In this document: positions 39,001 through 48,000 of the stretch, piece after piece
Numbering within the stretch: the stretch's first letter is position 1
Layout: the number at the start of each line of letters is the position of its first letter
Source: Spirochaetia bacterium
Lineage (GTDB): Bacteria > Spirochaetota > Spirochaetia > SP-2023
DNA length: 54,531 nucleotides
Assembly: GCA_965225855.1 (NCBI GenBank)
Contig: CBDDCK010000003.1
Span: 1-54,531 of the forward strand
Reading direction: 5' to 3'
Program-made: the position numbers

Positions 39001-42000
39001 CGGTAAGTTTCAGCCAAAGCGCTGTGCCATCTCTTTTAATACGGTACTTACCTTTTGCAAGACTGCGACTATCTGGCCCAGTGGCATCCTCATCTGCAGT
39101 ATAGGAATTTAAGGCTAGGCCAGCTACCGTGATGGTTTGGATTTGTGCTTGGGTCGCACTACCTAAGTGAGTACCTTGTACGGTTAACAGCGCCGTGCCA
39201 ACATGGTAGCTTGCACGGGTAATTGTGGGGTTTCCACTAACGGCCAAGGCTTTGGCTGTATTTAAACCCGCCCAAGTACCAGTGCCAACGCTAAGCAACC
39301 CATCTTTTAGACCATTGCTATCCATACCGGGCTTGCCATTCAGAGCATCTTTATCGGTATCGGTAAGTTTCAGCCAAAGCGCTGTGCCATCTCTTTTAAT
39401 ACGGTACTTACCTTTTGCAAGACTGCGACTATCTGGCCCAGTGGCATCCTCATCTGCAGTATAGGAATTTAAGGCTAGGCCAGCTACCGTGATGGTTTGG
39501 ATTTGTGCTTGGGTCGCACTACCTAAGTGAGTACCTTGTACGGTTAACAGCGCCGTGCCAACATGGTAGCTTGCACGGGTAATTGCGGCTTTAGGCGACT
39601 CTTCTTCAGCTTGTTCGACTTGTTCAGCTTGTTCAGCTTGTTCAGTTTGCTTAGATGGCTGATTGTCATCGGATACTTTAGACTGCTTATTTTCGGGTAC
39701 ATTACTAACGTCCAAGTCTTTAGGTGTATTTAAACCCGCCCAAGTACCAGAGCTAGTAAGCAACCCTTTTTTTAGACCATCGCTACCCACCTTGGCCTCA
39801 AGAACAGCTTTATGTTGCTCGGTAAGTTTCAGCCAAAGCGCTGTGCCATCGCTTTTAATACGGTACTTACCTTTTGCAAGATCGCTACTATCTGGCCCAG
39901 TGGCTGGGTCATCTGCAGTATAGGAACTTAAGGCTACGCCATCTACTACAATGGTTTGGATTTGCGCTTCTGTAGGACTTAAGTTAGAACCTTGTACGGT
40001 TAACAGAGCCGTAGCAAAGTCGTAGATGGCGTTATTGATAGTCGGCTTAGACGGCGCAGAAGATCGATCATCGTCATCGGGCGGGGCGCAGGCCAAGGCC
40101 ATAAAGGCCAGTAGCCAGGCTAATGGCAATAAAAATAGTTTGAGCTTATACATAAGCAATACCTCCAAAAATGGCTTGAGATTGACAAAACCCATACGGG
40201 CTATTGTACAGTGCCCCATTTTGCTAGGGGGGGTGTTGCGTCAAGGCCCATACAAGCTTTTTGTAAGTTTTTTTGTGCTTTTTTTATGTTTGGGGTACTT
40301 TTTTTGTGTCTTATTTGTTTTTTAGTGTTGGTTGGTGGTTAAAAATCCATGCCAATCCATTTGCATTTAATATTATTGTAATCTATAAACCATCAAAGCA
40401 ACCAATCCATAGCTATAGACGCAGCAAGTCGATAACTATGGACCGACCTAGTCCATAATTGTTACTTTTCAAAAGTACATATTTATGGCATGGTTTGGTT
40501 TTTATTATGAAAGTTTGGGGGGTAGTGGCTTTTTGATAAAGAGCCTGTTAAAGGAGTCTAGTTTATCAAAAATCTAAAAAACCTTACAAGGGCCTTGAGG
40601 CAGTTCCCCCACACAATAGGGCTACATACCGCAGCCTGTAGGGGGTTGCCAGCATTTTCTCTTATGGAGGTTATTCTTATGCATAAAAAAATTATTTTTA
40701 ATGCCAATGGCCTGGCTATTGAGCTTCGAGACGTGATAACTAGGGATTTTTTTGGACAGTGGCATCAGTGAATTTTATAGATTCAGTGGTATGTCTTACT
40801 GGAGATGCCAACGATGTTTGTCCATTCTATTTTTGGCAAGGGCAGCGTATAGATTAGCGCCGTAGATTGGCATGGCTGATAAAGATACCCGTAACTTCCT
40901 GGAATCTAAATCTTATAAAAGGCTGTGATAACTGCCCCCATAGTACAGTAGAGGTTGCTTGTCTTGTGAAGCAAAATGTAAAACCCGACCCAGCAAGATT
41001 TGGTGATCTCCTCCTTCTATAATTTGCTCTAAGCTGCAGTCCAAAGACGCTAAGCAATTAGGCAAAATTGGGGCACCGCGTTGCCAAGATTCTTTATTTG
41101 TAAAATTTTCAAATTTGGCTTCAGCTGGGTTGCTAAAAATCTGTGCTAAATGTTTTTGCTCTTCACTCAAAATATTAACTGCGAAAACACTGCTTGCCTG
41201 AATCATAGAGATGATAATATTGCCTTTACTCAAACAGAACTGCACCAAAGGTGGTGTAAGAGAAACCGAGCTAAAGGAATTGACGGTGATGCCATATATT
41301 TTTTCTCCGCTGCGGGTACTAATTATAGTTACGCCTGTGGCAAAATTTGCCAGAGTTTGGCGCAATTCTCGATGTTCGCAGTTGTTATGTAAAGATACAA
41401 TGGCATGCTTGCGATGGCGTATCAGACCAAGGCAAATATCGCGCAACAGGCCATTACAATTGGGGCCATGATCGGGGTAACGGTGATAATCGTCACCATT
41501 GTGAACCACCAATTTACCACCACGACCATCGTCGCGTGGATATTGCCACATCCAATCTGAAGGCTCAGCTTCGCTGCCAATTTGCGTCAAGCAAATAGCA
41601 TTTTCTGGCATTGGCGAAAAGCCGCGACTGTACTGGCCAAGTACACCATCCCAGCTATCAAAATCTACTGGCATATTGGCAAAAAAGCCGTAAGGGTCAT
41701 TTGCTATTCGTACTTTTAAATTGGTAAATGGCTTCGGAGAAACAATTTGAAAAAGCTTGAGCACCGGCAGCCATTCAATTGCTGCTTCTGTGCTGACAAT
41801 TAACTGGCCACCACACTTTAGATAATCCATAAATTTTTGCTGTTGGGATCGTAGATACAATTGGTCACAAATTCTTGGCACTACAACAATATCGTTCTTA
41901 AAAACTTCATCGTCCAAATTTTCTATTGACTGAAAGTGCAAAATTCCAGCAGTGCCTTTAAAAGTTTCCTGTAGATAAATTGGTCTGGATTCATTGGGGG

Positions 42001-45000: not shown

Positions 45001-48000
45001 TTTATCTGATAGTTTTCTCTTTAGTTCTGAATTTGCCGTTGCAATTTGGTCTAAAATATCTGTAGCACGGTCACTACGCTGTGCAGCTGAACCAGACATC
45101 TTTATATATTGGCGGCGGTCTTCTTCTGTACAACAGCTCCAGGTTGCAACGGTAAGACCAACTCTCTCCATTGGCTCTACGATCTTTGGATCGTGGCCCC
45201 ACTGAAATATCAGGTCTGGATCGTTCTTTAATATTTCTTCAACATTCGGGACAAAATCATTTTTTGCAGCGTTGGCCGGAACGGTGCGGAAATATGGGAA
45301 AAATTCGGCATATATACTGTTTTTTATAGTCTTTTGAGACTTCTCCGTAATATTGACAATTTTTTGAGGCTGCAAGCTGACGGCACTGTAAATAATGGGT
45401 GCCGAACTTGCTATAGCTACAATTCTCTGCGGCGGTCCAGATAAGGAAATTTGGTTTCCTCTACTATCGAGAAAGTTCACAGAAGCGAGCTCCACTTTCT
45501 TTTTGGTACAGCTCAACAACAAAATCAACACACAAAAGCCAAGGTACTTAATAGTTAAATAACGCATAAATTTCTCCATCACTTGATTATGATAATTATT
45601 TTTAGATATTAATCATAATTATCATAATCAATAAGTTAGCTTATATCAAGCTTCTATCAAAAAAAACAAAAAAATTTGAACCATCCACAAACGTCACCAA
45701 AGCCAAGGAATATTTGACTAAGCCATACTAACCTATTTTATCATCACCCACCAATACCCAACAAAAAAGCCAACCAAGCATTGCTTACCGCATTTACTTG
45801 GTTGGCCTGCCCGCTAGCTTTCACTTAGCTGCTATAAGAGCTATTGGGCAAGTAAGGTTAAAAGAAACCTTACTTAAAAAATTTTAAATTCAATACTAGT
45901 GGTTAGGTCTTCTGGACTACCAGGTACAAATTCTGCTGCTGCTTCCAGGTTATATGCACCATTATCATCACTTTCACCCTCCTTAACCAGTATCTTCTCG
46001 ACTTCCGCTTTTACACTACCGCTTAAAGTAATTGTTAATCTTGTTGCACCTGCACTAGAACCTGTGGCTCTGTTTGCACCTACAGTTGAGTGCCGTGGTA
46101 ATGTGAATCTCTTACTACCATCACCAGATACAAGCGTCAATTTGCTAAAGTCCCAGTCTGCAACTGCTCTCGGTAACCTGCTACCTCTAATATATAAATG
46201 GCTTAGAAGAGAATAGTAGATTGCACTGGTGATGCTGGCTACATACCCACTAACGGTAATAGGATTGCTTGTGTCTTCTGCGCTACCACCTGCAAAGCCT
46301 GCTGCTGCTTCCAGGTTGTATGCACCATTAGCATCACTATCACCTTCCTTAACCAGTATCTTCTCGGCTTCCGCTTTTACACTACCGCTTAAAGTAATAC
46401 TTAAGTAGGTTGTACCTGCACGAGAACCTGTGGCTGTGTTTTCACCTGCAGTTGCGTGCCGGGGTAATGTGTAGCTCTTACTACCATCACCGGATACAAG
46501 CCTCAATTTGCTAAAGTCCCAGTCTGCAACTGCTCTCGGTAACTTGATACCTCTAATATATAACTCGCCTGTATTAGCATCGTAGGTTGCTTCGGTGATG
46601 CTGGCTGTATACCCGCTAACGGTAATAGGATTGGTTGTGTCTTCTGCGCTACCACCTGCAAATCCTGCTGCTGCTTCCAGGTTGTATGCACCATTAGCAT
46701 CACTATCACCATCGTTAACCAGTATCTTCTCGGCTTCCGTTTTTACACTACCAATTAAAGTAATCTGTAAGCCTGTTGCACTTGCACTAGAACCTGCGGC
46801 TCTGTTTCTACTTTCAGAACCATAGGCTCTGTTGTTATGCCGGGGTAATGTGAATCTCTTAGTACCATCACCGGATACAATCGTCAATTTGCTAAAGTCC
46901 CAGCCTGTAACTGCTTTTGGTAAATTAGTACCTGTAATCACTAAGAAGCCTATAGTAACATCATAGGTTGCACGGGTAATTGTGGGTGCGGGGTTTCCAC
47001 TAACGTCCAAGGCTTTGGCTGTATCTAAACCCGCCCAAGCACCAGTGCTAGTAAGCAACCCATCTTTTAGACCATTGCTATCCATACCTGTTTTGCCATT
47101 CAGAGTAGCTTTATGTTGATCGGTAAGTTTCAGCCAAAGCGCTGTGCCATCGCTTTTCATGCGGTACTTACCTTTTGCAAGACCACGACTATCTGGCCCA
47201 GTGGCTGTGGCATCTGCAGTATAGGAATCTAAAGCTACCCCATCTACCACGATGGTTTGGATTTGGGCTTGGGTCGCAGTTGTAGGACTTAAGTTAGAAC
47301 CTTGTACGGTTAACAGCGCCGTGCCAACATGGTAGCTTGCACGGGTAATTGCAGCTTGTTCGACTTGTTCGGCTTTAGGTTGCTTAGGCGACTCTTCTTC
47401 AGCTTGTTCGACTTCAGTTTGCTTACGCGACTCTTCTTCAGCTTGTTCGACTTCAGTTTGCTTACGCGACTCTTCTTCAGCTTGTTCGACTTGTTCGGCT
47501 TTAGCTTGCTTAGGCGACTGCTCTTCGACTTCTTCAGCTTGTTCGTCTTCAGTTTGCTTACGCGACTCTTCTTCGGTTTCGGTCTGCTTATCGGGTATAT
47601 TGCTAACGGTTAAGTCTTTGGCTGTATCTAAACCCGCCCAAGCACCAGAGCTAGTAAGCAACCCTTTTTTTAGACCATTGCTACCCACCTTGGCCTCAAG
47701 AGCAGCTTTATGTTCATCTTTAAGTTTCAGCCAAAGCTTTGTGCCATCGCTTTTAATACGGTACTTACCTTTTGCAAGACCGTTACTATCTGGCCCAGTG
47801 GCTGGGTCATCTGCAGTATAGGAACTTAAGGCTAGGCCAGCTACCGTGATAGTTTGGATTTGGGCTTCTGTAGGACTTAAGTCAGTACCTTGTACGGTTA
47901 ACAGAGCCGTAGCAAAGTCGTAGCTTGCACTGGTGATTGCAGGCCCAGAAGACGGCCCAGAAGATCGATCATCGTCATCGGGTGGTGCGCAGGCCAAGGC

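Follow-up and report, generated by a model that had tools for sequence, protein, structure and literature searches.

The window, by which we mean the whole 54,531-nt stretch that was analysed, contains four minus-strand genes that read, 5' to 3', as a binding lipoprotein, a FecCD permease, an ABC ATPase and a long open reading frame (42709-40913). The features of the locus are the following.

45621..45649, minus strand: promoter-like site, the top promoter match of the region (10/12) in a scan whose site count was no higher than in shuffles
45583..45631, minus strand: long inverted repeat with Fur-box-like sites, overlapping the promoter-like site
44488..45582, minus strand: class III substrate-binding lipoprotein, FecB-like (PF01497, E 6e-9)
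43455..44525, minus strand: FecCD-type permease of a type II importer (PF01032, E 2e-80)
42713..43492, minus strand: ABC ATPase, HI1470-like (PF00005; the sole PDB match at E<1e-30 is 2nq2, HI1470)
42065..42673, minus strand: module A, GATase/ThuA-like (fold matches, conservation and a weak mapping onto the GATase active site)
41405..42043, minus strand: module B, GATase/ThuA-like paralogue of A
40913..41389, minus strand: HpaC/FerA-family flavin reductase, in frame with A-B (PF01613)

With PF01497, PF01032 and an ABC ATPase in a single operon, the first three genes encode a type II, FecBCD-like importer; an ATPase ATG at 43462 overlaps the end of the permease gene, and every named NCBIfam model scored below its cut-off against the transporter proteins. 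The same combination of PF01497, PF01032 and PF00005 is common to the operons of FecBCDE, FhuBCD and the molybdate importer MolABC (HI1470/HI1471/HI1472), and HI1470 is the closest structure to the ATPase. However, the binding lipoprotein, whose closest PDB matches are 4ovk, 4hn9, a Helicobacter nickel-binding protein and HI1472, is far from HI1472 (E 7e-6) and has a pair of adjacent cysteines, and the operon differs from all three systems in adding iron boxes and the A-B gene. The cysteine pair (Cys150-Cys151 of the 44488-45582 lipoprotein) is invariant in 51 of 51 core-clade binding proteins, a count of core rows with 7 divergent loci set apart, and is missing from the Bacillota binding proteins. 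No riboswitch was found in the window stretch; an earlier note on this DNA lists none in 14 loci.

The fourth gene likely starts at the ATG at 42673, and its product of 586 aa runs in the order A, B, flavin reductase. In the profile scan, residues 13-435 of the long open reading frame had no family match and PF01613 covered residues 454-597. The reductase matches PF01613 with 131 bits over positions 2-152 of 153, keeping the invariant columns, and all named reductase subfamilies fell below cut-off for it. The fusion, first proposed in the earlier note, is real: we reject an assembly artefact as its cause given that contigs from other studies span the junction. One of them (X5) crosses it with 12 substitutions and has its listed gap outside the gene, and another, from a third study (X7), covers 40914-42922, the whole gene, at about 92% identity and presumably in frame at the junction, with part of its changes displayed. 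A further contig (X1) matches without any difference, but it could itself derive from the source sample.

The cassette is bordered on each side by a copy of a repeated lipoprotein gene (38126-40219 and 45874-48090); these repeat lipoproteins have no Pfam family and give about 108 clusters of matches genome-wide. Next to another such gene lies a permease remnant (G000:C5:244709-245166), 98% identical and internally deleted, which represents a degraded second cassette and which a contig joint in X1 matches. The host genome, 94% complete, has Fur and three FlaA genes, which mark it as a spirochaete, and the PF01613 domain of the fused gene is its only one. Vertical inheritance was set aside, since none of 5 relatives from the same order (79-92% complete) was found to carry the cassette and the trees of the fourth-gene enzyme and the permease, drawn from 24 of 63 loci, both place the spirochaete protein as sister to Vibrio proteins; judging from these sequence comparisons, the cassette was presumably gained horizontally. 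Elsewhere in the window, 32693-37162 includes genes for sugar dehydratase and for DegT aminotransferase, which are probably pseB/pseC; beside them lie two genes that have no assignment and, at 37090-37162, a tRNA. The stretch 48919-54456 encodes a ketol-acid reductoisomerase of the long type, an HU-DNA_bdg/DUF4469 protein and a fusion of homocysteine methyltransferase with MTHFR.

Structure matches place both A and B in the GATase fold, so that the tandem amidotransferase-like fold claimed earlier stands as a fold class. The homology of A and B was found by profile comparison, and a single-sequence comparison of the two gave no match. The top fold matches comprise STM3548, the middle domain of GH42, ThuA-like proteins and the N-domain of IFT52, and the closest folds are non-catalytic or uncharacterised domains. 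A-B does not qualify as a class I glutamine amidotransferase with a Cys-His-Glu triad. A-B has no conserved cysteine (no Cys column at 90% among 120 rows), and in an end-to-end but weak alignment of A to 16 GATase domains (probability 17%, E 3e-4) the nucleophile falls on V92, the RYHS loop on WHWHG and HPE on D189-P-H191, its histidine aligning with D189; module B gave no GATase active-site alignment. Compared with TrpG, GuaA, CarA and HisH, A-B therefore lacks the nucleophile cysteine, and it also lacks a synthase partner. The best structural matches of A/B, namely ThuA-like, DUF4159, GH42 middle and STM3548 domains and domain III of dimethylformamidase, differ from the window protein in motifs and gene context and share 10-14% identity with it. 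The window protein had no match to ThuA (PF06283) or DUF4159 (PF13709); the distant relatives scanned scored below the gathering cut-off, and among its homologues weak matches at E up to 0.05 were seen to DUF4159 in 80/93 and to ThuA in 35/93. The PDB profile search, Pfam, NCBIfam, the ESM Atlas and phages gave no name for A-B by sequence, and no description of the family was found in the literature searched, which was the open part, outside subscription journals and unseen supplements.

The key residues of module A are H148, H150, D189, H191 and H193. Among 68 distant A modules, H148 is kept in 68, D189 in 63 and H193 in 61, whereas H150 and H191 alternate: the former is present in 65/68 distant rows versus 11/120 near rows, the latter in 119/120 near rows versus 3/68 distant rows. 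We read H148, D189 and H193, together with either H150 or H191, as a predicted metal site of three histidines and one aspartate, their clustering being based on the same weak profile alignment. In module B, D282-Q283, R362 (within a GxxG[FQ]YxR362G motif) and H403 are kept in 27-28 of 31 rows. These residues would suit an anionic ligand, and module B could be the chelator-binding half.

The four-gene operon ending in the A-B gene, as the earlier note described it, recurs widely. The 119 homologues listed, at 39-64% identity, are all unfused, and at 57 of 63 genome loci the homologue has the full set of three transporter genes beside it; 52 of these 57 have the window's gene order, 4 are divergent and 1 has the enzyme first, and the remaining 6 loci comprise two truncated by contig ends and four fragments. 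No other conserved neighbours were found around the 63 close loci. Elsewhere, A and B are encoded separately or joined in the order B-A, adjoining FecB-type and NikA-like importers. Given that a FecB-type or Opp-type binding protein is present in 59 of 69 loci of at least 8 kb, A and B track importers rather than pathways; the Opp-type proteins are closest to NikA, and at least four importer types accompany the pair. The dedicated metal-chelate importer partner proposed in the earlier note is thus supported; the processing activity that it gave to A-B is a proposal. The family extends over Pseudomonadota, Bacillota, Campylobacterota, haloarchaea and one spirochaete, and in Aliivibrio salmonicida the four genes lie on plasmid pVSAL320, with insertion sequences on both sides.

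Several arrangements at these loci deserve a record of their own. A Bacillus genome has two A-B paralogues in tandem behind a single importer (L019:9007-11643). An FmdE-like protein of about 170 aa, with an invariant H30 and a GPGxRD motif, lies downstream of B and A at 38 of 92 distant loci (e.g. L115:7196-7732), TonB receptors at 24 of the 92 have haem-receptor models as their best matches, though below cut-off, and in one protein (P0232) module A is joined to a Nitro_FeMo-Co (NifX-like) domain slightly below cut-off. C-P lyase genes (phnG-M) adjoin a B-A subclade and FecBCD-type importers at five loci (L052, L066, L075, L078, L186), also on a 22-kb plasmid, and no phnCDE was seen in the stretches read. 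The importers of this subclade, which is separate from the window clade, may take up metal-phosphonate chelates, a link on which a literature search found nothing.

The cargo metal of the importer is very likely iron, because the operon has Fur or RirA boxes in front of it and, in Aliivibrio, is up in a fur mutant; the metal of the earlier note's chelate importer is sharpened accordingly. The inverted repeat at 45583..45631 has a self-inverted identity of 88% over 50 nt, and the window operator has 4 mismatches to the 19-nt Fur consensus, a score that 1 of 300 shuffles reached. Iron control was seen in four lineages. Fur-like boxes with up to 5 mismatches lie upstream of the binding protein at 5/6 Bacillota loci (0.2 expected from shuffles) and 2/2 Vibrio loci (0.1 expected), and TGA-N9-TCA, the RirA box as defined in PMC1698941, lies there at 23/30 rhizobia-type loci (2.2 expected) and 8/18 other alphaproteobacterial loci (0.9 expected). 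These counts cover 56 of the 57 loci, in groups sorted by hand on record titles, whose members are kin and not independent. The host genome has 27 Fur-box-like sites, and the 6 open reading frames scanned downstream of such sites encode three PF01497 proteins, an SBP_bac_6 protein, a PF10634 iron-transport protein and an unrelated one. Published derepression concerns the transporter genes of Aliivibrio rather than this host: in the supplement of PMC5511505, pVSAL320_27-29, presumably the transporter genes as they belong to the plasmid's only annotated ABC transporter, are up 2.8-, 2.5- and 2.5-fold in the fur mutant, and the fourth gene is missing from the two-fold list of that study. The transporter is called iron-dependent in PMC2627896. 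Molybdate or nickel is disfavoured by the iron boxes as cargo of the window clade; in the distant clades either may still apply.

The reductase is a local add-on and a minority feature of A-B loci. About 9 distinct loci bear one versus well over 100 that do not; it is absent from 61/63 close loci, 86/92 distant loci, 23/24 sampled Hyphomicrobiales genomes (1.5-kb flanks) and 12/12 annotated plasmid regions. Nonetheless, reductases occur in four further gene arrangements. In Devosia insulae the A-B gene is followed by a PF01613 gene that overlaps it by four bases, and in another Devosiaceae genome the reductase gene in this place is frameshifted; at six Opp-type or short loci the reductase lies upstream of B and A, and in G970 it sits between two B-A pairs (G734 is a duplicate of L135). 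These reductases group in a single clade, with 26-29% identity to the fused domain, and because a clade shared with the window's reductase is rejected (p-AU 4.6e-5), the reductase was recruited at least twice. The listed homologues lack the fusion itself, but the flavin link that the earlier note drew from it is strengthened by these separate recruitments, though as a local feature rather than a general one. Between reductase and B, six loci encode a small His-rich protein that is exported and matches no Pfam family (L145:6926-7348; also L135, L139, L141, L144 and L216).

How might these parts work together? We consider the chances about even that A-B unloads iron in the cytoplasm with the help of reduced flavin, in the manner of FerA, and that the operon is an iron-repressed ferric-chelate importer. 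Iron limitation would release Fur from the operator, and the lipoprotein, permease and ATPase would import the Fe(III) complex of a small chelator. The A-B pair would bind this complex, B through its Arg, Asp and His residues and A through the three-His/one-Asp site, while the reductase would make FMNH2 or FADH2 from NAD(P)H; reduction of Fe(III) to Fe(II) would loosen the chelate, and module A could catch the iron and pass it on. Most hosts would use the general pool of reduced flavin, with a few, including this spirochaete, carrying their own reductase. For this chemistry, which we infer for both A-B and the reductase, there is a precedent in that dihydroflavin made by FerA frees siderophore iron, according to a review (PMC6041382). 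No monooxygenase of PF00296, PF08028 or PF03241 that could consume the flavin was found in the host genome, at its 94% completeness, which supports the unloading role; a two-component flavin monooxygenase system was considered, and no luciferase-like or acyl-CoA-dehydrogenase-like partner was found. Against the unloading role count the lack of a reductase at most loci, the monooxygenase-like and luciferase-like genes, identified by eye, that respectively adjoin one partner-clade reductase (L275) and lie downstream at L145, the non-catalytic or uncharacterised nature of the closest folds, and the absence of the fourth Aliivibrio gene from the two-fold list. Free reduced flavin can also reduce many chelates with no binding protein, which counts against it too. 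More tentatively, with the balance somewhat against us, A and B could be an undescribed family that uses reduced flavin to free iron from one class of chelator whatever the ABC importer, the amidotransferase site having been rebuilt as a three-His/one-Asp iron site.

Alternatively, although we find this rather unlikely, A-B could be a metal-dependent amidohydrolase that cuts chelator amides, an amide counterpart of the Fes esterase, with the reductase merely helping to free iron from the fragments or keeping a catalytic iron reduced. Dimethylformamidase offers a precedent for the fold but uses Tyr/Tyr/Glu rather than His/Asp (PMC7686228); moreover, no chelator-catabolism genes recur near A-B loci, and a hydrolase leaves two separate reductase recruitments unexplained. 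The top fold matches, the FmdE-like neighbours and the NifX-like fusion would each fit a non-catalytic accessory (a chelate buffer, a metallochaperone or a transporter-associated subunit), with the reductase as passenger or general ferric reductase. Such a role seems improbable to us, since the pair is retained alongside four or more importer types, a poor fit to docking on a single transporter, and the invariant His/Asp residues suggest chemistry. Finally, a His/Asp site, an HpaC-family reductase and haem-receptor-like TonB proteins could point to an Fe(II)/O2 oxygenase that, supplied with reduced flavin, would free the iron by destroying the chelator or else a haem-like ligand, but this is very unlikely, as the fold matches include no oxygenase, the binding protein is not closest to haem-binding proteins and the reductase is missing at most loci.

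The architecture of an iron importer with a cytoplasmic release factor is itself known. Iron is released in the cytoplasm by FerA (Paracoccus), YqjH/ViuB, FscN and IruO, and by the esterase Fes. Like these, A-B would act downstream of uptake, and the fused domain shares the PF01613 fold of FerA (E 2.6e-36, below cut-off), but none of them is known to use a tandem GATase-fold pair, and here the reductase is fused or co-transcribed. The putative release factor thus belongs to an unnamed family that fails both the GATase triad and the ThuA tests. The release of iron from many imported chelates is unexplained, and for many ABC importers of iron no cargo has been assigned. The A-B family provides a defined, purifiable candidate for an iron-release factor, with named residues for mutation, and the single fused polypeptide of the window is the most convenient version for assay. 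If the unloading role is true, the GATase fold would have gained a new use. A-B also flags orphan importers as a group, among them the Fur-regulated cassette on the plasmid of the fish pathogen Aliivibrio.
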